A stretch of 64,000 nt of DNA from Candidatus Omnitrophota bacterium (GTDB lineage: Bacteria; Omnitrophota; Gorgyraeia; Zapsychrales; Zapsychraceae). Location: the NCBI GenBank assembly GCA_003522725.1, contig DPIG01000078.1:18746-82745 (forward strand), read 5' to 3'. The notes under the pieces are model-generated. The model saw only the letters and a program-made list of their open reading frames with translations, did not search any database and had not been told where the DNA came from. This document shows, in pieces, positions 1,660 through 30,066 of this stretch. The position numbers and the translations under genes are program-made. Numbering within the stretch: position 1 is the first letter of the stretch; each line of letters opens with the position of its first letter.

Positions 1660-2485
1660 GTGTGTGTGTCCTTTTGTTCGCAAACCGACAGGGTCGTTTG
1701 CGAACAAACGACCCTGTCGGTTTGGGTATGGTCCGGATAAAAACGAATGTTCCGGTAAAACGGGTTCTTTTCCAGCAACGCTTCAACGGGCGCGGCCTGG
1801 CCGTCACCGATCTCAAAAAACAAGTAACCCTCCGGCTTTAAATATTGGTGGACGCGGCGGATGATGGTTTCGTAGAAGCGCAATCCGTCCGCTCCGCCGT
1901 CCAGGGCCAGGCGCGGCTCCTGTTGCACGTCCCTGGGCAGATGGTCCAGTGCCGACGTCTTAATATACGGCGGATTCGAGACAATACAATCAAAATTTTT
2001 CATCCACGCGCGGTTGGCCACGAGGCTCTCGCGCATATCTTCGCGTAAAAACCGGATCTTTTCCGTCACACCGTTTGCCGCGGCGTTACACCTGGCAACG
2101 CTAATGGCCTCTTCAGAGATATCCAGCGCCGTAACATGACATGGGTCGATCGCCTTCGCCAGGGCGATAGCGATATTGCCTGAACCCGTTCCGAGGTCGA
2201 GCACGCGGCAAGGTTTCGATAATTTACTTGATTTAAGCTTTTGAAGGATCGTATCGACCAGGATTTCGGTTTCAGGACGGGGGATCAGGACGCAAGGGTT
2301 GACGGCAAGGGCACTGCCTAAAAAGTCGCATTCGCCCAAAACATATTGGAGCGGTTCGCCATTCTGATAACGCGCGCGCATTGAATCGTACTCTTTTTGC
2401 TCATCCGGGGTGAGCGGCCGCGGGTCCGCGTAGAGATCGACGCGCCGGCATTTGCGGACCGCGGTCAGCAATAGTTCGTCCGCGT

Positions 2486-2489
<4 letters not shown>
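1644..2489 (-). CDS. prmC: Release factor glutamine N5-methyltransferase
   Basis: NPPY motif (IVSNPPYI), SAM-MTase motifs ([15 protein letters not shown]), immediately downstream of prfA. Confidence 0.9.
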
Positions 2490-3547
<1,058 letters not shown>

Positions 3548-3550
3548 GAG

Positions 3551-3754
3551 TTATTTGTTTTTCTTGTAACGTTTGGCGAAACGTTCGATACGTCCGGCGG
3601 TGTCCACGAATTTCTTGTCCCCTGTAAAGAACGGATGACATTGGGAACAGATCTCGACACGGATGTTTTTTCGGGTCGAGCGCGTGTGGATGACGTTCCC
3701 GCAGGCGCAGGTGATTGTTGTTTCTTCGTATGACGGGTGTAGCTCGGCTTTCAT
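3551..3754 (-). CDS. rpmE: 50S ribosomal protein L31
   Basis: MKAELHPSY...CACGN...[10 protein letters not shown], typical zinc-ribbon L31, 67 aa. Confidence 0.9.
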
Positions 3755-3777
3755 GGTACTTGAACTCCTTTCGTCAA

Positions 3778-5208
3778 TTATAGTTTACTCAGATTCTCCA
3801 AAAAGTCCTTGTTGGATTTGAATTTACTGATCCGGGCGATGAGGAGCTCCATCGCTTCGGCGGCGTTGAGGTCGTGAATGGCCTTGCGCAACAGCCAAAC
3901 CCTCTGCAGGTCGTCCGAGGGGATGAGCCTTTCTTCATGGCGCGTGTTGGAGCGCCGGATGTCGATGGCCGGGTAGATGCGCCGCTGGAAGAGGTTGCGG
4001 TCCAGCTGTAATTCCATGTTACCCGTTCCCTTGAACTCTTCAAAAATAACTTCGTCCATGCGGCTTCCGGTGTCGACCAGGGCCGTGGCGATGACGGTCA
4101 AGCTGCCGCCTTCTTCGACCGCGCGGGCCGCGCCGAAAAAGCGTTTGGGTTTATGGAGCGCGTTGGAATCCACACCGCCGGAAAGGATCTTCCCGCTGTG
4201 GGGAACGACTGTGTTGTACGCCCGGGCCAGACGCGTGATGCTGTCCAAAAGAATGACGACATCGCGCTTGTGTTCCACAAGACGTTTCGCCTTTTCCAGG
4301 ACCATTTCGGCGATCTGGACGTGGCGTTCGGGCGGTTCGTCGAAAGTCGACGCGACGACTTCGCCGCGCACGCTGCGCTGCATGTCGGTGACCTCTTCGG
4401 GACGCTCGTCGATCAAAAGGACCATCAGGACAACGTCCGGATGATTGTGCATGATCGAATTGGCGATCTTTTGCAATAAAACCGTTTTACCGCTGTAGGG
4501 CGGCGCGACGATGAGCGCGCGCTGCCCCTTGCCGATGGGCGTGATCAAATCCATCAACCGCATGGAGATCTCATCAGATTTCGTCTCCAGGACCATACGG
4601 TCCTGCGGGTAGATCGGCGTGAGGTTGTCGAAAAAGATCTTCTCCTTGCACTTTTCCGGGTTTTCATAGTTGACGGCCTCGACTTTCAGAAGCGCGAAAT
4701 ATTTTTCGCCTTCTTTGGGCGGACGGATATGCCCGCTGACCGTGTCGCCCGTCTTGAGGTCGAACCGGCGGATCTGCGACGGGGAAATGTAGATATCGTC
4801 CGGGCAAGGAAGATAGTTGTAGTTAACACTGCGCAGGAAACCAAAACCTTCCTGCAGGATCTCGAGGGTCCCTTCCCCGAACATCAACCCGGCCTTCTCC
4901 GCCTTTCCTTGCAGGATCTTGAAAATGAGGTCCTGCTTGCGGATGCCGCTGATGCCGTTGATGCCCATGTCCCGGGCGTATTTGGACAGCTCGGCCACGC
5001 TCATGTTCTTGAGCTTGGTGATGTCCAGCTGGTCTTCCTGGCCCTGTGAGGGTTGGACGTTATTTTGCGCGGCGTGGGTGACGGGGCTGATGGGCTCCGA
5101 AACTTCCCTTTTCGCGCTTGTTCTTTCCTTCGCGGACACGGGTCTTTCCCGTTCCACGCCAGATTCCGATTCGGTTACTTTTTTGCTCTTTGTGTCAGTT
5201 TTTGCCAT
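3778..5208 (-). CDS. rho: Transcription termination factor Rho, with a charged N-terminal extension of about 60 aa
   Basis: RNA-binding OB domain, Walker A (PPYSGKT), Q/R loops, 476 aa. The N-terminus is K/E/S-rich low complexity before the conserved [11 protein letters not shown]. Confidence 0.9.
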
Positions 5209-12716: not shown

Positions 12717-13487
12717 TTATTCAACTTCAAAGGCGTTTTTATCGTGTATCTTTTTCTTCCGAGATTCCCATGTTTGAAAAAGGAATGTAGCCATCGTCCC
12801 GGAAAGATTAACTGCAAGTTCCGCATGCCGTGGTGCTGGCCGGCTCCCTGATACCCCTTTGCCATGCGCATCACTATGTCGGTTTCGTAAAGCGCCTAAT
12901 CCTTCAACGACACTCTGGCAACCACCCAATATCTGTTTAAAAATTTGCTCTGTATGTTGGCTCGGTGAAAGATTAAGCTGTCTGACGGTCAAAGTGTAAA
13001 GTTTGGGGAGGTCGACATCATTGCTATATGTTATGCCTGACTCATCAAGTATATGCTTGCATGCAGATTCAAGCAGCGTGCGAGCTGTTGTAATCGCACC
13101 CTCAGGGTCAGCAGCTCTGCGTTCTAATGCTTTTTGCCAAATTTCTTGAATGTAGGTTGAATCCAAAGTCTGCACAGTTGCGGAAATTGAAGCGTCGCTT
13201 GGCGTGCGTGAATCGGTTTCTAGTGTAGTCAGGAGCGGATCAAACTCTTGCTGTAAGTACCCTCTTCGTTGAGCATAGGTTGCGAATTTCGGCTGAATGA
13301 AACTCCAGAATTCAGAAAGGTTGCGACATGTGTGGACAAAACGAGGTAGTAGCTTTGCAATACGCGGAGATGTAATAAGTTCACGACGTAAATTTTTGTA
13401 TTCCAAGTCGTCACCGTTACCACCGGTCGCATGTGAAACTAGCATTATCTTCAGTGATTCAACTTGATTAATTTTTTCTTCATTCAT
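12717..13487 (-). CDS. Abortive-infection-like protein with a C-terminal HEPN (Abi_C-type) domain
   Basis: The C-terminus (TLLESACKHILDE...LPKLY...LGALRNRHSDAHGKG...RHAELAVNLSGTMATFL) fits the Abi_C/HEPN pattern, with an Rx4H motif (RHSDAH). The gene is visibly AT-rich compared with its neighbours. 256 aa. Confidence 0.65.
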   Translation of the reverse strand: MNEEKINQVESLKIMLVSHATGGNGDDLEYKNLRRELITSPRIAKLLPRFVHTCRNLSEFWSFIQPKFATYAQRRGYLQQEFDPLLTTLETDSRTPSDASISATVQTLDSTYIQEIWQKALERRAADPEGAITTARTLLESACKHILDESGITYSNDVDLPKLYTLTVRQLNLSPSQHTEQIFKQILGGCQSVVEGLGALRNRHSDAHGKGVSGSRPAPRHAELAVNLSGTMATFLFQTWESRKKKIHDKNAFEVE

Positions 13488-16304: not shown

Positions 16305-17237
16305 TCAGGATTTTGCATAGACCGGCAACAAAAATGACGAAAAGTAATCTATCCCCGGGGTCCGGGCCTTTATTTCCAGTTCCCAATACTTCGCCGGTCG
16401 GCAGCTCAGACAGGAATTGTACCGGGACTCCTGGGGAAGCGAAAAAGCCAGGGGCCACTGGGCCGCTTGCTGCTCAAAAGCCGTCAGGTTACTTAAGGTC
16501 AACGTGTCCGCGTAAAGCTGGTAGGAAACGACCACGGACTTTCTGTTCTTGCCGCTGCCGCGCGTCTCATATTTTTCTTCAATATGACGCAAGGTCACCG
16601 TCATCTCTTTTAATCCCGCGACCGGCTTGTTCGTGCGCAAGATGACCTTTAGGTCTTCCCCCAGGAAAAACGGACAATGCTGGAATTCGAGCGAGCTCAC
16701 CCCATATTTCAAAAGGGCCAAGACGAGGTATATCCAATACGCCCAGGCGGTCACAATGATGACATCGAAGAAGCCGATAAATAATTGAAAAATTCCGTCG
16801 GGATGTTTGACAAAGAACATCCAGTTAAACGGCGCGATGAATACCATAAAGCCCAAATTGGCATAAAGGCCGGCTTTGACTTTTTGCCATGAGTCCGCCT
16901 TGATCCCTTGCGGGTCCCAGGGATAATCAGCGCGCCATTTTTCCGCGGGGTATTGCTGGTTTAAAAGCGCGGTTTTTCTTTTTTCACTTAAGCTAAGCAA
17001 GCCATGTATCAGCGTCAAGAGGCCTGCCAGCGCGAAGAGCCCACCGAAGCCGGCGGCCACCTCACGCGCGGCATGGAAACTTGAATCTTTGACCGGGATC
17101 ACGTCCAAAGAAATGAGGATTATAAATGTTCCCACGCCGATAAACGGCAGGCTGAAAAAGACCGCCGGCCAGCCCTCAACGGTCGTGCGGCTGATGGTGG
17201 AATGTCCCCGGAGCTCTTTGCGTTGAAGGTCGGTCAT
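16305..17237 (-). CDS. Hypothetical integral membrane protein (about 4 TM segments plus a soluble C-terminal domain)
   Basis: Clean 310-aa ORF with hydrophobic segments. No family recognised by eye. Confidence 0.5.
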   Translation of the reverse strand: MTDLQRKELRGHSTISRTTVEGWPAVFFSLPFIGVGTFIILISLDVIPVKDSSFHAAREVAAGFGGLFALAGLLTLIHGLLSLSEKRKTALLNQQYPAEKWRADYPWDPQGIKADSWQKVKAGLYANLGFMVFIAPFNWMFFVKHPDGIFQLFIGFFDVIIVTAWAYWIYLVLALLKYGVSSLEFQHCPFFLGEDLKVILRTNKPVAGLKEMTVTLRHIEEKYETRGSGKNRKSVVVSYQLYADTLTLSNLTAFEQQAAQWPLAFSLPQESRYNSCLSCRPAKYWELEIKARTPGIDYFSSFLLPVYAKS

Positions 17238-17258: not shown

Positions 17259-19154
17259 TTATGGCCGTGCGGCAACGAGGAAATTCGCGCTGCCCGGGGG
17301 TTTCACGTAAGAAAGCGTGCTTTTGCCTAACGCGACTCCGCCTAATTTCTGGATCGCCGCGATATGCGCCGGATAGATTTTGTCATGGACAAAATAGTTG
17401 AAAAATCCTTCCGGCGTGGAAACGACCAGGAAATGATACCCCAGCCCCGCCAGCCGGGACAACTCGCCCGCGCGGTAGTGCGCGATGTCCCAGCGGTTGA
17501 AGAAATAATACGCCGGCGTGAAATAGAATTCTTTGAATCGCCGGGTCAGTTCCTCCTTGATTTGTTCCGGCGTGAACCCGGAAAGGTCCTGGGGGCCCAG
17601 CGTGGCCATGCCCCAGAGCCCGATGACCTCGGGCAGATGACGGTCGATCGCTTGCGGAAAATGCCGCCGGTGCATGAGATCCCCGGGAACAAGCGGGTCC
17701 AGAGGCGCGTAAGCCACCTCGGGGTTGGCGATGCCCAACAGGTCCAGAAGGTCATGTTCGGCAAAATACATCACGGTCGCCATCTCGGGGCTCGCGATGA
17801 CGGCGTGCGCGGGGAGCGTCAGGCGCAGATAACGTCCGAAAAATCCCAGGTCGTCGATCCGGCCCCAACGGTTGCGGGAAATGCGCAGGTCGTTGTAAAG
17901 CGTCTGAAACGCGTTGGGCGCCGGCCAGATGTACGGTGAAACGATGAGCGCCAGAGCGATTGCCGTCCGCGCGCCCTGATGGCGCACGAACGGCGTGACG
18001 GCTTTATAAATAAACGCCCACGCGCAGATCGTAAACAGCAGTGTAAACGGCATCAGATAACGGTTCCAGGGAAACGGAAACCAGTCTCCCCCGCCGGTAA
18101 AATAAAGCGAACAAAAAACAGCCGTCACGCCCAGAGGCAGGAAGATTTTCGAAGGCAGCAGTTTTTTATAAAAACAAAACCCGATCGGAATGACGCTCAA
18201 TAAGGCAAAGATGTGCGATTGAAAATACTGCAATAAAAACTGCAGCTGGCCCAACCCTGCCCGTAAATAAGCAGGGTCCCCCGCCGTATTCTTGAAAATG
18301 ACCGGCGCGGGGACAGGGTGCCCAAAGAAAAATTTGCGCGCCAGGGTCAGAAACGCGAACGGCGTCACCAGAAAAAGCCCTGTTCCCAAAGCTTTTTTCA
18401 GGGAGGGCCGTTCGAGGTAAAGGCAAAGCCACATCAGAAAGGTGAACACGATCCCTTCGATCCGCACCAGCGGCAGGAAGGCGAGAATGACCAGCCCGGC
18501 CCCGCGTTTTTCCGGCGGCGCGAAAGTCAGGAAATAAACGCTCAAAAGGACCAGGCCCGTGAATAATGTTGCCATAAACCCCGACCCGCCGACGAAGATG
18601 ACGCAAGGGAAAACGCCCAGGGCCAGCGTAAAGGCCAGGCATGCCGGTTCATCAACGACAAGCGCCCGCAGGATGAGCCATCCGGCGGCAATGACAAGTA
18701 CGTTTCCCAAAAGGGAAAAACAGACGGCGGTCTCGACTAAAGGAAAAGAAAGTTTGCCCAAAACCCCGGTCAGAAAAAACGGCAGAAAGTCGACCGTCCC
18801 TTCGGCCATATTCGCGGCGTTATAGCTGTAATGTCCCGCGTGGGTGAGGACGTAGGAATGCCGCAGGTTGATGAAGAATTCATCCCAGCCTTCGCTGACC
18901 TTCAAGCTTAAAAGGACCGACAGAAACGCGATGAGCCCCAAGGACAGGTTTTGCCAGAACAACGGCCGCATCCGCCGGCGAAAAAATGCCAATCCGGCAA
19001 GCGCAAAGATCATGCCGGCCGCGGCCGGAAGAACGGGACGGGTCTGGATCAAGGACAGCATCCCGCCGAAGAATTCATTGACCGGAGGGGTGACGGGGAG
19101 AAAATCGTTGACGCGGAAAATTTCAAGATCAAGGATCTGCGGTGTGTCGCCCAT
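17259..19154 (-). CDS. Large polytopic membrane protein, putative GT-C-fold glycosyltransferase (ArnT/PMT/YfhO-like)
   Basis: 631 aa, about 12 predicted TM helices in the N-terminal two-thirds, then a soluble C-terminal domain. Sits in a cluster with a DPM1-like GT2 gene. Assignment is by architecture, not a recognised motif. Confidence 0.45.
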   Translation of the reverse strand: MGDTPQILDLEIFRVNDFLPVTPPVNEFFGGMLSLIQTRPVLPAAAGMIFALAGLAFFRRRMRPLFWQNLSLGLIAFLSVLLSLKVSEGWDEFFINLRHSYVLTHAGHYSYNAANMAEGTVDFLPFFLTGVLGKLSFPLVETAVCFSLLGNVLVIAAGWLILRALVVDEPACLAFTLALGVFPCVIFVGGSGFMATLFTGLVLLSVYFLTFAPPEKRGAGLVILAFLPLVRIEGIVFTFLMWLCLYLERPSLKKALGTGLFLVTPFAFLTLARKFFFGHPVPAPVIFKNTAGDPAYLRAGLGQLQFLLQYFQSHIFALLSVIPIGFCFYKKLLPSKIFLPLGVTAVFCSLYFTGGGDWFPFPWNRYLMPFTLLFTICAWAFIYKAVTPFVRHQGARTAIALALIVSPYIWPAPNAFQTLYNDLRISRNRWGRIDDLGFFGRYLRLTLPAHAVIASPEMATVMYFAEHDLLDLLGIANPEVAYAPLDPLVPGDLMHRRHFPQAIDRHLPEVIGLWGMATLGPQDLSGFTPEQIKEELTRRFKEFYFTPAYYFFNRWDIAHYRAGELSRLAGLGYHFLVVSTPEGFFNYFVHDKIYPAHIAAIQKLGGVALGKSTLSYVKPPGSANFLVAARP

Positions 19155-20522: not shown

Positions 20523-21161
20523 TTACTCCTCGGTGTTGAAAAAATCGTCCGCCTTGGCCGGAAAGTCGGTGCACAAGAACAACTGCTGTTGATGGCGGCG
20601 CAACGCGGGGTTTTTTAACAATCGCCAGAGACGCTCATGTCCGCGTCCGTGCAGTTCCGGTGAAACCACACAAACATCTTTGCCCGATTTCAAATGTTCT
20701 TCGATGGTACGCGCTGTGAACCAGTCGGTTTTAAATGAGTCCAGCCAAACTCCCGCGGCGTGTTCCCACAAAACCGGCCGTGGTTCAAATTCGCTTTGCC
20801 GGGTGAAAAACGGGATTTTACGGTCGCGATAAACAACCAGTTCCGGGATATTGGCATCAAAGACAAAATAATGACGCACCCGGTAACGACGCGCCAGACT
20901 CTGGATCAGACCTTGCAGGCCGTCGGCCTTGACGTTGATGGCCAGCGTTTGGTCTTTGATGTTCCGGGCAAAAAGTTCAAAGACCTTTTCGGCGCCGGGA
21001 TTTCGCCTGGATGCCGGATCATGCGCGATGACCAGCTTTCCTCCGGAATCGCGTACGTCCGTTTCAACACCAAACCCCATTTTAGCGGCCCGGCGAATGG
21101 CCGGAAAGCTATTTCTTTCTTTTTTCGACCGCCAATTCCCGCGGTGCGCCAGGATGTGCAT
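20523..21161 (-). CDS. Glycerophosphodiester phosphodiesterase (GP-PDE) family protein
   Basis: ILAHRGN...GFGVETDVR...LVIAHD, the H-R...E-D catalytic signature of GDPD. 212 aa. Confidence 0.7.
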   Translation of the reverse strand: MHILAHRGNWRSKKERNSFPAIRRAAKMGFGVETDVRDSGGKLVIAHDPASRRNPGAEKVFELFARNIKDQTLAINVKADGLQGLIQSLARRYRVRHYFVFDANIPELVVYRDRKIPFFTRQSEFEPRPVLWEHAAGVWLDSFKTDWFTARTIEEHLKSGKDVCVVSPELHGRGHERLWRLLKNPALRRHQQQLFLCTDFPAKADDFFNTEE

Positions 21162-22726: not shown

Positions 22727-22750
22727 CAATTCGGTCAACGTTGACCGAAT
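22727..22750. promoter_or_regulatory. Perfect 24-bp palindrome between the GH5 gene stop and the nucleotidyltransferase start
   Basis: AATTCGGTCAAC|GTTGACCGAATT. On the minus strand it is followed by GATATTTTGAA. It could be an operator site or a terminator stem. Confidence 0.5.
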
Positions 22751-22792
22751 TCAGACAGACCCGGACATGAGCTTGGGGCGATCCCGGAAGGT

Positions 22793-22818: not shown

Positions 22819-25800
22819 TTATTGCAGGATCCTGGTATAGTTCGCTTCATGGTCTTTGACCCATATGCCGTTGACCTTGGACCAGATGGACGCGTAAAGC
22901 GGTGTGCCATCCAGCGGGACGGTCACGGTGACGGAAGTATTTGATCCCGCATTGATATTGCCGACGTTTTTCGTGTTGGGAGCGGTCCCCAGCCACAGAT
23001 AATACTGCGCTGCCGCCGGATTCGTCGTCCAGATGAACGTTACGTTCGCCGTATCGATCTGGCTCCCCGGCGCAGGTGAAATGATCCGGGCCCGTTGGTC
23101 GGCGCGGGTATAGCTCACTTCATGATCTTTGACCCATATGCCGTTGACCCTGGACCAGATGGACGCGTAAAGCGGTGTGCCATCCAAGGGGACGTTTACA
23201 ATTACCGAAGTATTCATTCCGGCATTGATGTTACCGACGTTGTTGATGCTTGGAGCAGTACCCAACCACAAATAATACTGTGTTGCCGCGGGATTTGCCG
23301 TCCAGGCAAACATCACGCTAGTGGTCGTGATCTGACTGCCGGGTACGGGCGAAGTGATCAGGGCTTTTTTGTTACTGCGCGTATAACTTGCTTCATGGTC
23401 TTTGACCCATATGCCGTTGACCCTGGACCAGATGGACGCGTAAAGCGGTGTGCCATCCAGCGGGACGGTCACGGTGACGGAAGTATTTGATCCCGCATTG
23501 ATATTGCCGACGTTTTTCGTGTTGGGAGCGGTCCCCAGCCACAGATAATACTGCGCTGCCGCCGGATTCGTCGTCCAGATGAATGTTACGTTCGCCGTAT
23601 CGATCTGGCTCCCCGGCGCGGGCGACATGATCCGGGCCCGTTGGTCGGCGCGGGTATAGCTCACTTCATGGTCTTTGGCCCATTTCCCTTTGACTTTGGA
23701 CCAGATGGACGCGTAAAGCGGTGTGCCATCCAGCGGGACGGTCACGGTGACGGAAGTATTTGATCCCGCGTTGATATTGCCGACGTTTTTTGTGTTGGGA
23801 GCGGTCCCCAGCCACAGGTAATATTGCGTCGCGTCGGGATTCATTGTCCAGCGGAAGGTCACGTTCGCCGTATCGATCTGACTGCCCGGCGTGGGCGACA
23901 TGATCCGGGCCGGCCCTTTAACCGAAAGATATCCCTCGAGGATCCCCGTTAAGGAAATATTAGGTGAATGATGGGCCGCGGTATCGTATTTGCCGAATTT
24001 TTGTTCCAGCTGGACTTGGGAATCCGTGCTGACGTCGGGCGGCGCGTCATTGTAGACGTCATGCATAAACAAACCCCACTCGGTGGGGTATTGCGTCTGG
24101 TGCGCCTTGTACGTCCACATCGCCCAGTGCCAGTTTTTATTGCGGAATGTCGCCAAAAAATAGTCCCAGTTGGCCCGCTGATTGAAGCCGTTGAATTCGC
24201 CGATGAAGACCGGCACGTTGAAGATTTCCTGCGCGGAATTGTTCACCTTGCCGTCGAGGTACGCGCGGTGTCCGGGGACGTCTTTAATGCCGATGATATT
24301 TCCAAAACTGTCGAATTCGAACCCGTAATAATGGAATTCGTAGACGACATTTTGCCAGCCGTAAACGTTGGGGTGCGGAAGGGTGTCCCAGTCGAATTCG
24401 CTGGGGACGCTTTCCATGACAATGATGTGCCTGGGGTCAACCGCGCGGATCGCCTGATAGAGCGCGTTATAAAATGGCCAAAGGCCGGCGGGCCCGGTGA
24501 AGGTCGGGTCGTGGTCCAAGGCGCCAAAAGGTTCATTCAAAAGATCATAACCCATGACATTGGTCAAAAAAGCGTAACGTGACGCGACCGCCGTCCAGAA
24601 TTCGATGGTCTTGGCGCGGTGCGCGGCGCCGTCAGGGCCGTTCTCGAAAAGTTTGTTGTAGTTCGCGCGGCCGGAATGCGCCTCGTCGCTTTGCGCCCCC
24701 GGCGCGCCGTGAAGGTCCAACAGGACGTAGATCCCGCGGTTGGCGCATTGCTCGATGATCCAATCCAGTTTGGTGAAGTTTGTGAACGCGCCGGTTGAAT
24801 CTTGCAGGGCTTCATAATAAATCGGCAGGCGGACCAGATTGACGCCCATACGCATCAAGTGGTCCAGATCGATCGTTTGGATATACGCGTCCTGATACGC
24901 GTTAAGAAGATTTGCCGACCCGAACCTGCGGACCAATTCCGCGCGGATGCTGAAGTCGTCATCATCGTTTGGGTTCGCGGCGGTGTACCCGCCTCCGATC
25001 CCGGTAAATTCCGGCTCGATCAATAACAGGTTCCCCAGATTGACGCCCCCCAGGAGGATCGGATCACCAAGGCCATCCATTTCCAGGATAGCCATGCCGT
25101 CCGTCTTGAGATACCCGCCTTCGAGGGAAGTGACCGGCAATGCCGGGCTCCAACCGGTCGAATCGAAGATGTCCGTTAATCCGGTCCTTAAATGCGCGCG
25201 GATGCGGTACCATGAGCCTTCTTCATAATAACTCGCGGCTGGCAGCAAAGCGTGCGGGCCGCGGTATATTTCCGTCCAGGGCCCGTTACGGGACGGGCCT
25301 TTCTGGATCTCATACTGGTCGGCGAACTCGAGCGGTTCCCACTGCAATCCGGCAAAGGCGAACCTTGGATGGCGAAGCAAGACCGGAGGACGGAGCGAAT
25401 AAACAACCTCGCTCCATCGCGAAATATAGGGGATCGGGTCAGTGGAGGTGACGTCCTCTTTCCAGCGGACCCGCAGCCACCGTGGGGACAAAGGTTTGAT
25501 AAAAGAAGAAAGGCCCGTCCCCTCGTAAATGGTCGTCCATGGTCCCTGCGGTCCCGCGACGCTTTCCTGCAATTCGTACGCGCCCGCGCCGGCAATCGCG
25601 TCCCACGCCGCGGCCACTCCCTGGGCCGATTCTGAAACAACGACGGTCGGCGGTGTTTTAATGGCCCTGATATCATCGATGTAGTAAACTCCGGGCCAGA
25701 AAAACTGGAACTGGATCTTGTTGATGCCGCTGAGGTCCAGGCCGGCGGGTAATCCGCTAAAGGGAACGGCCAGTTGTGTCCATTGCCCGCGCACCGCCCG

Positions 25801-26688
25801 TTTGGTCGTCCAGACAACGACCGGGTCCACAAAATGGTCGCCGTTATCGAAAAATTGCACGCCGACATTGCTGTCCAGCCCGTTTGCCGCGAGCGCGTAA
25901 ACCCAGAAGGTCAGCCGGTCGTTTTGCGCGGGGTTAAGATCCACGTTCCAGGGCGTCTGCTGGTCGGGCGGGACGAATTTATTTTCCTGCGACTGGATGC
26001 CGGTGCCTGCCCAGTTGGCGGTGGTGGTCAATTTCCAGGATTGTGTCCCTTCATAGACAACGTTTCGTTCCAGAGCGACCGTCCCGTCCCACGCCCAGCC
26101 GCAATCGCCGGGCGAAACGCAGCGTTCGAAGGCCTGATAAATCCGGTCATCCAGAACAACGTTGAGATCGTCCAGATAATACGTCCCTGGCCAATAGTTG
26201 ATGAATTCGATCTTGTTGATATGCGTGAGGTCGAAGTTCGCCGGCAGCTGACTGAACAAAACGGTCAACCGGGTCCACTGCGCGAAACGCGCGGTTTGTG
26301 CGGTCCAGACCTCAAAGCCGTTATTGAAATAATTAGTTGTGTCGAAGAATTTCACGCCGACGTTATTGTTGTTGCCTTGCGACGGCAGGGCGTAAACCCA
26401 GAACGTGAGGCGGTCGTTGCGTTGCGGCTGGAAATCCATGTCCCAGCGCTGGGTCTGCGACTGGATCCTTGTTCCTCCCCAAAAATCGGGCGCCTGGACC
26501 TTCCAGGAGCGTGCGCCGGAATGGACCTGCGCGCTGGAAGGGGTGACAACGGCGGCGTTAAATCCCCAGCCATATTCATCGGACCCGTTGGCGGGTTCGA
26601 AATCCTGGTAAATGGCGCCGGCCATGGCCGCGGTCGCGGTCAATAAAAGGACAACGCTCGCCGACAAGATATTCAATGACCGTTTCAT
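22819..26688 (-). CDS. Secreted multidomain glycoside hydrolase family 5 protein with N-terminal beta-sandwich repeats, Fn3-like modules and five C-terminal 91-aa repeats
   Basis: Signal peptide MKRSLNILSASVVLLLTATAAMA. Two ~170-aa N-terminal repeats (NDRLTFWVYAL...NVGV.FFD...YWPG.YY.DD). GH5 catalytic region with NEP acid/base (GYDLLNEP) and GEFN nucleophile (FIGEFNGF). Five tandem repeats (SP.PGSQI.T..V.F.WT.NP.A.QYYLWLGTAP...NVGNINAG.NTSV.V.VPLDGTPLYASIWS.V.G.W.KDHE.SYTR). 1289 aa. Confidence 0.8.
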   Translation of the reverse strand: MKRSLNILSASVVLLLTATAAMAGAIYQDFEPANGSDEYGWGFNAAVVTPSSAQVHSGARSWKVQAPDFWGGTRIQSQTQRWDMDFQPQRNDRLTFWVYALPSQGNNNNVGVKFFDTTNYFNNGFEVWTAQTARFAQWTRLTVLFSQLPANFDLTHINKIEFINYWPGTYYLDDLNVVLDDRIYQAFERCVSPGDCGWAWDGTVALERNVVYEGTQSWKLTTTANWAGTGIQSQENKFVPPDQQTPWNVDLNPAQNDRLTFWVYALAANGLDSNVGVQFFDNGDHFVDPVVVWTTKRAVRGQWTQLAVPFSGLPAGLDLSGINKIQFQFFWPGVYYIDDIRAIKTPPTVVVSESAQGVAAAWDAIAGAGAYELQESVAGPQGPWTTIYEGTGLSSFIKPLSPRWLRVRWKEDVTSTDPIPYISRWSEVVYSLRPPVLLRHPRFAFAGLQWEPLEFADQYEIQKGPSRNGPWTEIYRGPHALLPAASYYEEGSWYRIRAHLRTGLTDIFDSTGWSPALPVTSLEGGYLKTDGMAILEMDGLGDPILLGGVNLGNLLLIEPEFTGIGGGYTAANPNDDDDFSIRAELVRRFGSANLLNAYQDAYIQTIDLDHLMRMGVNLVRLPIYYEALQDSTGAFTNFTKLDWIIEQCANRGIYVLLDLHGAPGAQSDEAHSGRANYNKLFENGPDGAAHRAKTIEFWTAVASRYAFLTNVMGYDLLNEPFGALDHDPTFTGPAGLWPFYNALYQAIRAVDPRHIIVMESVPSEFDWDTLPHPNVYGWQNVVYEFHYYGFEFDSFGNIIGIKDVPGHRAYLDGKVNNSAQEIFNVPVFIGEFNGFNQRANWDYFLATFRNKNWHWAMWTYKAHQTQYPTEWGLFMHDVYNDAPPDVSTDSQVQLEQKFGKYDTAAHHSPNISLTGILEGYLSVKGPARIMSPTPGSQIDTANVTFRWTMNPDATQYYLWLGTAPNTKNVGNINAGSNTSVTVTVPLDGTPLYASIWSKVKGKWAKDHEVSYTRADQRARIMSPAPGSQIDTANVTFIWTTNPAAAQYYLWLGTAPNTKNVGNINAGSNTSVTVTVPLDGTPLYASIWSRVNGIWVKDHEASYTRSNKKALITSPVPGSQITTTSVMFAWTANPAATQYYLWLGTAPSINNVGNINAGMNTSVIVNVPLDGTPLYASIWSRVNGIWVKDHEVSYTRADQRARIISPAPGSQIDTANVTFIWTTNPAAAQYYLWLGTAPNTKNVGNINAGSNTSVTVTVPLDGTPLYASIWSKVNGIWVKDHEANYTRILQ
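22822..24186. repeat. Five tandem 273-bp DNA repeats inside the GH5 gene; copies 1, 2 and 3 are nearly identical
   Basis: GACCCATATGCCGTTGACC... recurs at 22858, 23131 and 23404 (period 273). Long runs of nucleotide identity are visible between 22850-23090, 23120-23360 and 23400-23640. Copies 4 and 5 are diverged. Confidence 0.8.
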
Positions 26689-26706
26689 GGTTTTCCCTGG
26701 ATCAAA

Positions 26707-27075
26707 TTATTCAATCTCAAACGCGTTTCTGATGAGTTCGACCGTAAAGCCGCCGGCGTCATCGGGGATCACGGCCACCGCGTCAAAACGCGCTTCGACG
26801 TCTTCGGTGTCTTGTCGCGCCAGATAACCCCGCGCCGCGCGGATGATCTTCTTTTGTTTGACCGGAGAAATCGACTCAAAAGGATGCCCGTGCCAGTCTT
26901 GGGTACGGGTGCGTACTTCAATGAAACACAGCGTTTTACCATCCTGGGCGATGATATCGATCTCGCCGAAGGCGTTGCGATAGTTGCGCGCAATGACACG
27001 GTAGCCTTCTTTTTTCAGCCGCGCCACCGCTTGTTCTTCCCCGAGCTTTCCAAGATCAAGGCGTTCTTGCGTCAT
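26707..27075 (-). CDS. yraN: YraN-family endonuclease (UPF0102)
   Basis: Start at ATG 27073-27075 (MTQERLDLGKLGEEQAVARLKKEGYRVIARNYR...GEIDIIA). 123 aa. Overlaps the rnhB stop. Confidence 0.7.
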   Translation of the reverse strand: MTQERLDLGKLGEEQAVARLKKEGYRVIARNYRNAFGEIDIIAQDGKTLCFIEVRTRTQDWHGHPFESISPVKQKKIIRAARGYLARQDTEDVEARFDAVAVIPDDAGGFTVELIRNAFEIE

Positions 27076-27698
27076 AGCTGGCACTGAAAACTCCGGCGCT
27101 GGATCAACGACGGGCCCAGGCGCCGGATCGCTTCTTTGTGTCCTTCGGTCGCGTAGCCTTTGTGCCGGTTGAACCCATATCCCGGGTAAACCCGGTGGTA
27201 AATGTTCAAGATCCGGTCTCGGACCACTTTCGCGACGACCGAAGCGCACATAATCGAAAGAACGCGTTCATCGCCTTTGATGATCGTTTTGTAATGGTAC
27301 GGCAGGTCAGAGCGGAAGCAGTTGCCATCGATAAGAAGGCATACGGTCTTCGCAAAATTCTTTTGGCTGGTCATCACCGGAGAAAGCCACGCGATGAGAT
27401 TGACAACGGCGTTATGCATCGCGAAAAATGTGGCCTGGAGGATATTGTTTTGGTCGATGACGTTTTCACTGATGATCCCGACGCCGACGTAGGAGCGCTT
27501 GTAAATTTCATGAAAAGCTTCTTCGCGCTGGGCGTGGGAGAGCTTTTTGGAATCCCGGACGGGAACGGAAAAGTCAGCTCGACGCAAGGCAACGGCGGCC
27601 GCGACCACCGGGCCGGCCAGCGGGCCCCGGCCCGCCTCATCGACACCGATGACGAGGTTAAAACCAGCTCTTCTGGTCTTATCCTCAATGGCTAGCAT
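27072..27698 (-). CDS. rnhB: Ribonuclease HII
   Basis: VIGVDEAGRGPLAGPVVAAAV active-site region. 208 aa. Confidence 0.9.
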   Translation of the reverse strand: MLAIEDKTRRAGFNLVIGVDEAGRGPLAGPVVAAAVALRRADFSVPVRDSKKLSHAQREEAFHEIYKRSYVGVGIISENVIDQNNILQATFFAMHNAVVNLIAWLSPVMTSQKNFAKTVCLLIDGNCFRSDLPYHYKTIIKGDERVLSIMCASVVAKVVRDRILNIYHRVYPGYGFNRHKGYATEGHKEAIRRLGPSLIQRRSFQCQL

Positions 27699-27704
27699 AT
27701 TTTA

Positions 27705-27768
27705 ATACGTATTTCGTATCTCGTCGCTCGTATTTCGCAAAAACGAAATACGAGATACGAGATACAAA
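27705..27768. repeat. REP-like palindromic element, copy A (CGTATCTCG/CGAGATACG units), between rplS and rnhB
   Basis: CGTATTTCGTATCTCGTCGCTCGTATTTCG-caaaaa-CGAAATACGAGATACGAGATAC gives an imperfect hairpin of about 22 bp. It shares the core GTATCTCGTCGCTCGTAT with copy B. Confidence 0.65.
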
Positions 27769-27770
27769 AA

Positions 27771-28145
27771 TTACTGTTGGATTGAGACTTGTTCCTTCTT
27801 GACGCGGGCGGCTTTGCCGGTGCGTCCGCGCAAGTAATAAAGCTTGGAGCGTTCGGCCACACCTTTGTTGACGACCTGCAAACTGTCGATAACCGGCGAA
27901 TGGATCGGGAATACCCTTTCAACACCTTCTCCGAAGGTAACCTTGCGCACGGTGAAGGTGCTTTTTAATCCCCGGCCGGTTTTGCTGATGACGGTACCCT
28001 CAAAAGGATGCAAACGGACCTTGTCGGCCTCGCGCACCTTGATTTTCATTTTGACCGTGTCGCCGACCTTGAAATCCGGCAGCTGCGCGCGTAGCGACCC
28101 GCTGTCGATGTCTTGTATGATTTTTTCCGCGTGTGTTGCTAGCAT
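27771..28145 (-). CDS. rplS: 50S ribosomal protein L19
   Basis: Typical L19 sequence. RBS AGGAGG. 124 aa. Confidence 0.92.
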   Translation of the reverse strand: MLATHAEKIIQDIDSGSLRAQLPDFKVGDTVKMKIKVREADKVRLHPFEGTVISKTGRGLKSTFTVRKVTFGEGVERVFPIHSPVIDSLQVVNKGVAERSKLYYLRGRTGKAARVKKEQVSIQQ

Positions 28146-28181
28146 AATAACCTCCTAAAATAATAGTAGAGAGTAAGTTAC

Positions 28182-30066
<1,885 letters not shown>

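Follow-up and report, generated by a model that had tools for sequence, protein, structure and literature searches.

A gene on the minus strand at positions 22819..26688 of a 64,000-nt stretch of DNA from an uncultured Omnitrophota bacterium (contig DPIG01000078.1; the whole stretch is called the window here) probably encodes a Sec-exported, multi-modular retaining beta-glycanase with a recombining C-terminal tail of four units. The product is identical to HCI45391.1 (DE315_07685), annotated as 'hypothetical protein' in a metagenome-assembled genome (MAG) of a Candidatus Omnitrophica bacterium, where its gene lies on a 146-kb contig. An earlier reading of the sequence (the original prediction) had placed a 1289-aa open reading frame (ORF) with a glycoside hydrolase family 5 (GH5) domain and a duplicated N-terminal module here, all of which we recovered on the minus strand. 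From the N- to the C-terminus, the protein consists of a signal peptide, two jelly rolls resembling carbohydrate-binding modules (CBM) of the CBM11/22 type, two fibronectin type III (FN3)-like modules, the GH5 domain and four FN3-like repeats. The features up to the end of the catalytic domain are as follows, with E denoting the expect value.

22819..26688, minus: complete GH5 ORF, 1289 aa, ATG start (ORF call and translation)
26620..26688, minus: putative Sec-type signal peptide, aa 1-23 (MKRSLNILSASVVLLLTATAAMA/GA, ending …TAAMA/GA; sequence read by eye)
26149..26616, minus: N-module 1, aa 25-180, CBM-like beta-jelly roll (predicted fold)
25654..26148, minus: N-module 2, aa 181-345, paralog of N-module 1 (44% identity, E 2e-46)
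25129..25653, minus: two FN3-like linker modules, aa 346-432 and 433-520, about 87 aa each (profile against Fn3 chains)
23911..25128, minus: GH5 catalytic domain, aa 521-926 (PF00150)
24532-24534, minus: codon of the putative acid/base E719 (conservation and alignment)
24196-24198, minus: codon of the putative nucleophile E831 (conservation and alignment)

Catalytic domain and accessory modules

The Pfam model PF00150 matched aa 605-863 with an E of 4.8e-28 and a score of 98.9 bits against a cut-off of 23.5 bits. In 63 homologs, R620, H660, N718, E719, H786, Y788 and E831 were 100% conserved and W858 at least 97%, and the NEP acid/base and GEF nucleophile motifs aligned to the solved structures 9ku5 and 1h4p. 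These data show that the retaining catalytic apparatus of the GH5 domain is intact, presumably on a (beta/alpha)8 fold. The nearest solved sequences were 9ku5, the 'putative beta-xylosidase' GE32 of Geobacillus (E 1.7e-17), and the yeast Exg protein 1h4p (E 1.4e-14); exo-1,3-glucanase 8z2w and endoglycoceramidase II were further relatives. GE32 is listed in one paper as a putative endoglucanase, unassayed. We found nothing specific in the literature on this GH5 clade in Omnitrophota.

The two N-modules, of about 160 aa each, are predicted to fold as beta-jelly rolls resembling known CBMs (CBM11/CBM22/CBM4-like), and they have no sequence relative in the PDB. In P0069 (976 aa, from a Logan assembly), a lone copy of N-module 1, at 57% identity, forms the N-terminus of a protein with FG-GAP/VCBS repeats and without a GH5 domain, suggesting that the CBM-like module is mobile between architectures. 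The two middle modules have no Pfam match, but their profile matched the Fn3-like protein 3mpc of C. thermocellum (E 2.7e-5), the Fn3 module of CtXyl5A (5g56, E 4e-4) and FNDC3a (2crm, E 1.3e-3), and between the two there is a weak similarity (E 2e-6). Homology between these middle modules and the C-terminal repeat was considered and rejected at the sequence level, with an hhalign probability of 6%. The putative signal peptide, as read by eye, has no lipobox Cys, and the last repeat unit has no recognisable C-terminal sorting signal.

The repeat array and its divergence

Tandem Repeats Finder (TRF) reported a single array at 22834-23911 with a period of 273, 3.9 copies, 81% matches, 0 indels and a score of 1512, which bears out the 273-bp period of the original prediction. 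A repeat search of the DNA placed four copies in register. All four were delimited by translation and slicing.

23638..23910, minus: R1, FN3/Ig-like repeat unit (predicted fold), aa 927-1017
23365..23637, minus: R2, repeat unit, aa 1018-1108, 93% identical in nucleotide sequence to R4
23092..23364, minus: R3, most divergent repeat unit, aa 1109-1199, 77-78% nucleotide identity and synonymous divergence (dS) of 0.76-0.89 against the others
22819..23091, minus: R4, repeat unit, aa 1200-1289 plus stop

Five repeats had been predicted. The array has four, and a hidden Markov model of the repeat detected no fifth or degenerate unit upstream of R1 (aa 701-930) or elsewhere in the six-frame ORFs of the window. 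The core of WLGTAP, NVGNINAG and PLDGTPLYASIWS that had been described for each repeat is present in 4 of 4 units. Three repeats had been called nearly identical, and only one pair, R2 and R4, is so: these two share 93.4% nucleotide identity over the full unit, with a longest exact run of 160 nt. R1 is 86.8% identical to R2 (longest exact run, 73 nt) and 86.1% identical to R4 (74 nt), and the longest exact runs between R3 and the other three units are 36-61 nt. When the segments named in the original prediction were compared in register, 22850-23090 (R4) was 97.9% identical to R2 (longest exact run, 160 nt), 89.2% to R1 (74 nt) and 78.8% to R3 at 23120-23360 (36 nt). The longest exact run was thus 160 nt, short of the 200 bp or more of nucleotide identity that had been claimed.

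By Nei-Gojobori estimates, dS was 0.14 between R2 and R4, 0.36 between R1 and R2, and 0.32 between R1 and R4, and the ratio of nonsynonymous to synonymous divergence (dN/dS) was 0.17-0.32 for every unit pair. The non-repeat core of the protein, compared with an ortholog of 89% identity that is described below, gave a dS of 0.37 and a dN/dS of 0.13. Because the dS of R2-R4 is lower than that of the core, the exchange or duplication that relates R2 to R4 dates from after the separation from this ortholog, the closest relative known. The proposal of a very recent duplication or gene conversion is therefore supported for R2/R4, but not for R3 and largely not for R1. Synonymous divergence of the kind seen between ordinary paralogs, which had been named in advance as evidence against that proposal, was found for R3 and largely for R1, and not for R2/R4.

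When positions 273, 546 and 819 nt apart were compared one by one, a mosaic pattern of identity emerged along the array. The strongest block, with 276 of 281 positions identical, lay at an offset of 546 nt, that is, of two units, and its two copies delimit a recent exchange tract.

23390..23670, minus: tract copy A, ~33 nt from the end of R1 and ~248 nt from the start of R2, matching copy B at 276/281 positions
22844-23124, minus: tract copy B, the end of R3 and most of R4, 276/281 identical to copy A, longest exact run 160 nt

Judged from these divergences, the units are old paralogs that have been held by purifying selection and partly re-homogenised by recombination. The DNA identity is sufficient for homologous recombination, both between the R2 and R4 regions (the 160-nt exact run and the 276/281 block) and between R1 and either of them (runs of 73-74 nt). 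The number of units could change in frame, since the period of 273 is a multiple of 3 and there is exact identity over runs of 73-160 nt.

Copy number in relatives and reliability of the assemblies

The sole close relative that we found is P0001, a protein of 1108 aa that is 89% identical and is encoded on a 3.6-kb contig (L001). It has two repeat units, compared with four in the gene of the window. Its first unit, LR1, is orthologous to R1 (dS 0.39), yet has an R2-like linker, and its second unit, LR2, is chimeric, being R3-like in the first third and R4-like in the remainder. A partial yraN gene lies upstream of this ortholog, so that synteny is conserved. The pattern in L001 fits unequal crossing-over between units, although a collapsed assembly path could yield the same; on the sequences compared, recombination is the most likely cause of the difference between four units and two. 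P0002, at 52% identity, has one diverged copy of the repeat domain at its C-terminus. A scan of genome contigs for further alleles recovered only these 89% and 52% relatives, and scans of metagenome contigs, with protein patterns and with a repeat pattern of 29 specified bases, did not find further alleles. The MAG that contains the 89% ortholog (L001/L002, CAYHWZ010000280.1) bears the title 'uncultured Elusimicrobia bacterium', unlike the remaining named relatives, almost all of which are labelled Omnitrophica or Omnitrophota; the title may reflect a mislabel or a binning problem.

All copy-number data come from short-read assemblies, and those of the window's own population stem from one groundwater system. 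One explanation of the results is that the array structure (four units and the R2/R4 pair), the two-unit ortholog, or both are artefacts of short reads, the mosaic being a chimeric path through the repeat graph. Several assemblies do end at or in the array. The proteins adjoining HCI45391.1 have identical counterparts in Omnitrophica WOR_2 bacterium GWA2_53_43, in which the gene is partial (OGX10264.1, 1065 aa) and the contig (L004) ends inside R2; in a third same-population MAG the gene (HBO97910.1) is cut at aa 914, before R1. Contigs L005-L009 were reached through the downstream GT2 gene. In L005 (ANAN16-1 scaffold_651), everything between window 23715 in R1 and window 22931 in R4 is replaced by a 100-N gap, L006 and L007 begin inside R2 (at window 23583 and 23536, respectively), and L008 and L009 begin inside R4. 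L001 is itself an isolated SPAdes node, and its chimeric second unit is what a collapsed path would give. Against an artefact, the sequence of the window is reproduced by contigs from different assemblers or projects: L004 reproduces the R1-R2 junction (100%), and the R2-R3-R4 junctions are reproduced by L006, which matches at 100% through R3 and R4 into the flank, and by L007, which has one mismatch (99.97%) over the same units and flank. The units also differ enough for paired-read placement: the 281-nt tract contains 5 mismatches, and R3 shares only 77-78% identity with the other units. L001 continues past the array for 111 nt of 3' flank, its frame and stop intact. We consider an assembly artefact unlikely. 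Because the R1-R2 and R2-R3-R4 junctions were each recovered in other assemblies, four is the minimal consistent unit count, and short reads leave room for an array longer than that.

At 1922-4600 of the L005 locus, gene calling missed the GH5 gene and gave three spurious ORFs that overlap (240, 226 and 204 aa), an example of annotation degraded by the repeat; presumably the frame is broken by the 100-N gap. The main practical relevance of the repeat is that it accounts for the truncation of the gene in most MAGs; the repeat dynamics themselves are textbook.

Fold and family of the repeat unit

AlphaFold2, run on the repeat unit with an alignment of 16 sequences, predicted seven strands with a mean predicted local distance difference test (pLDDT) score of 96.3 and a predicted template modelling (pTM) score of 0.85. 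The predicted fold is a seven-strand beta-sandwich of FN3 topology (FN3/Ig-like E-set), and sequence identities in this fold result were 4-21%. No Pfam or NCBIfam model matched the repeat, whether the full protein or single units were searched, nor did Pfam match it in eight other family members. Hits to SDH_C, DUF4249, CARDB and GldM_3rd were sub-threshold noise and were rejected. A PDB profile search with the unit gave no significant relative, the best E being 0.17. The statement of the original prediction that the core is not recognisable as a standard CBM or cell-anchor domain thus holds for the curated models, but the predicted fold is a generic FN3/Ig-like sandwich. By this model, the unit is a generic extracellular FN3-like module without a curated model, and not a new fold. 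Fn3 modules in glycoside hydrolases serve as linkers and surface modifiers.

The repeat domain is widespread. Among 1.84 billion cluster representatives (50% identity), a profile of the domain matched 8,223 proteins at E<=1e-3; 4,932 of them reached E<=1e-10 and 2,244 reached E<=1e-30. The best matches usually have 5-22 tandem copies of the domain, and its partners in the family include S8, S53 (pro-kumamolisin) and M36 (fungalysin) peptidases, right-handed beta-helix, NHL propeller, DUF2341 and He_PIG domains. Terriglobales is the label of some members. In the GH5 family itself, about 68 proteins share the core of two N-modules, two FN3-like modules and the GH5 domain (38-59% identity over ~70% of the query), and nearly all of the named carriers of this core are Candidatus Omnitrophica/Omnitrophota. 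The tail after the GH5 domain spans 0-1010 aa in these proteins and includes the Ig-like types CARDB, PKD, He_PIG, Big_9, TIG, FlgD_ig and Laminin_G_3, with only the query, P0001 and P0002 using the repeat unit described here.

These findings bear on whether the tail is a functional ligand-binding array, of a new CBM-like or envelope-binding family, and not a passive spacer, with its copy number selected for avidity or reach, for example toward a host or prey surface in these putatively host-dependent nanobacteria. Each unit is under strong purifying selection (dN/dS 0.17-0.32), and invariant surface-type residues such as NVGNINAG extend beyond the FN3 core. The family is very large, always occurs on extracellular, degradative or adhesin-like proteins, and forms arrays of up to about 22 copies. 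Omnitrophota have, moreover, been discussed as host-dependent or predatory bacteria with secreted glycoside hydrolases (bioRxiv 10.64898/2026.06.07.730766). On the other side, the domain lacks a PDB sequence relative, the tail of the GH5 family is freely exchangeable (0-1010 aa, many Ig-like types), and only 3 of ~70 GH5-family members have the repeat domain, which argues against a role essential to catalysis. We regard a ligand-binding array as improbable. The broader proposal, that the very large extracellular FN3-like family which the 88-91-aa unit may define is a true ligand-binding module (a new CBM or adhesion family), with recombination tuning avidity or reach toward a host or prey envelope, we hold to be quite improbable.

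Working model

In the model that we prefer, a secreted glycanase with a recombining tail of four units, the protein would be exported via Sec, and the N-terminal CBM11/22-like pair would dock the enzyme onto a beta-glycan. The two FN3-like modules would join the jelly rolls to the GH5 domain, which would cleave the glycan by classical double displacement, E719 serving as the acid/base and E831 as the nucleophile. The four C-terminal FN3/Ig-like units would form an extended non-catalytic stalk or an auxiliary binding array, and RecA-type recombination (gene conversion or unequal crossing-over) would alter the number of units in frame. The latest re-homogenisation would have involved the ~281 nt common to R1/R2 and R3/R4.

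Several points weigh against this model. No length variants were seen within the population: its assemblies, the single mismatch of L007 apart, agree at 100% wherever they overlap, and most of them break inside the array. The counts of four units in the window and two in the ortholog come from short-read assemblies, in which collapse or expansion is possible. No anchor or outer-membrane secretion signal was found in the protein. By sequence, the distance to the characterised GH5 enzymes (E 1e-17 at best) is too great for a substrate to be assigned. The N-modules match no CBM family by sequence, the only hit being CBM_4_9 at E 0.024, below the cut-off, and they are assigned as putative CBMs by predicted fold.

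Omnitrophota are uncultured and mostly ultra-small, and their lifestyle is debated (free-living fermenters versus host-dependent or predatory bacteria), with secreted glycoside hydrolases being part of that debate. The present analysis defines a conserved, Omnitrophota-rich GH5 architecture of two CBM-like modules, two FN3-like modules, a GH5 domain and a freely swapped tail, which could be expressed to learn which glycan Omnitrophota attack. It also flags two sequence families that lack curated database models, the N-terminal CBM-like module and the very abundant FN3-like repeat.

Genomic context

A same-strand run of genes, trmD-rplS-rnhB-yraN (26707-28937, minus), ends upstream of the GH5 gene, whose start codon lies 18 nt (26689-26706) past the stop of yraN (UPF0102). 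A GGGA Shine-Dalgarno-like motif is present at the GH5 gene. The short gap, the common strand and this motif make co-transcription with trmD-rplS-rnhB-yraN likely; such apparent co-transcription of a secreted glycanase with housekeeping genes is unusual. A terminator-like element follows the gene.

22728..22751, minus: terminator-like perfect palindrome AATTCGGTCAACGTTGACCGAATT, 10-bp stem and 4-nt loop, then T-rich GATATTTTGA, 68 nt past the GH5 stop (sequence)

By its sequence, the palindrome resembles a terminator, although it could instead be a protein-binding site. Downstream of the GH5 gene lie NTP_transferase, GT2, HAD and NTP_transferase genes, which confirms the original observation that the gene is directly upstream of a glycosylation block. 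A functional link between the two was considered and rejected, as the hairpin separates them and the neighbourhood is not conserved in distant homologs. All that is conserved of the neighbourhood is the upstream yraN, and this in the 89% ortholog alone; the homolog P0007 adjoins ECF sigma, CHAT peptidase and CARDB genes instead, and at two further loci (L003 and L015) yraN, rnhB, NTP-transferase and GT2 genes are all absent from the neighbourhood. The adjacency to the glycosylation block looks positional only.

Within the NTP_transferase/GT2/HAD/NTP_transferase block lie three ORFs without a Pfam match at 1e-4 (17259-19154, 631 aa; 16305-17237, 310 aa; 20523-21161, 212 aa; all minus), and their synteny holds across every assembly of the same population. 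A 256-aa ORF (12717-13487, minus), which lies about 9 kb downstream from the GH5 gene, has an Abi_C (PF14355) abortive-infection C-terminal domain (E 7e-24) and may, from this match, be a phage-defence gene. In window 1-64000, ARAGORN found no tRNA, and there was no Rfam match at gathering thresholds. The cumulative GC skew of the window drops steadily from about 36 kb onwards.

Comparison with known systems

Modular GH5 enzymes such as CtXyl5A of C. thermocellum (GH5-CBM6-CBM13-Fn3-CBM62, 5g56) likewise combine a secreted GH5 domain with jelly-roll CBM-type and FN3-type modules. Lic26A-Cel5E, with its CBM11 (1v0a), has the same module types as the structures matched here. PcGH5 of Paenibacillus curdlanolyticus is reported to have the order GH5-CBM11-Fn3-CBM3 (PMC12099637) and so shares the GH5, CBM and Fn3 kinds of module. 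The canonical retaining catalytic residues are common to these modular bacterial enzymes and the present protein. The order of modules differs, however, with the CBM-like pair N-terminal and the FN3-like array C-terminal in our protein. Moreover, its N-modules and repeats match no Pfam, NCBIfam or PDB sequence family, its GH5 domain is remote from characterised enzymes, and its host lineage is Omnitrophota.

The closest solved structures by sequence are the yeast Exg exo-beta-1,3-glucanases (1h4p, 1cz1), GE32 (9ku5) and the Rhodococcus endoglycoceramidase II (2osw). They share with the GH5 domain a G-V-N-L-G-x-x-L-x-x-E-P N-terminal motif and the NEP and GEF motifs, but the E values are only 1e-17 to 1e-10, and these proteins are without the set of accessory modules found here.

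The tail has counterparts among repeat proteins of other bacteria. Tandem domain repeats that recombine in frame are known from the streptococcal alpha C/Rib family. In CagY of Helicobacter pylori (PMC2194252), as in the present gene, whole domains are repeated in tandem, stretches of DNA are near-identical, and recombination that keeps the frame changes, or in the present gene probably changes, the number of units. Mosaic units in related lineages are common to CagY, the alpha C/Rib family and the array described here. In contrast to those systems, this array has only one near-identical pair and no observed size variants in the population, and it belongs to an enzyme, not to an adhesin or antigen, with no known host immune pressure. 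Taken together, these comparisons place the gene as an uncharacterised modular secreted GH5 of a well-known kind, with partly homogenised tandem domain repeats.

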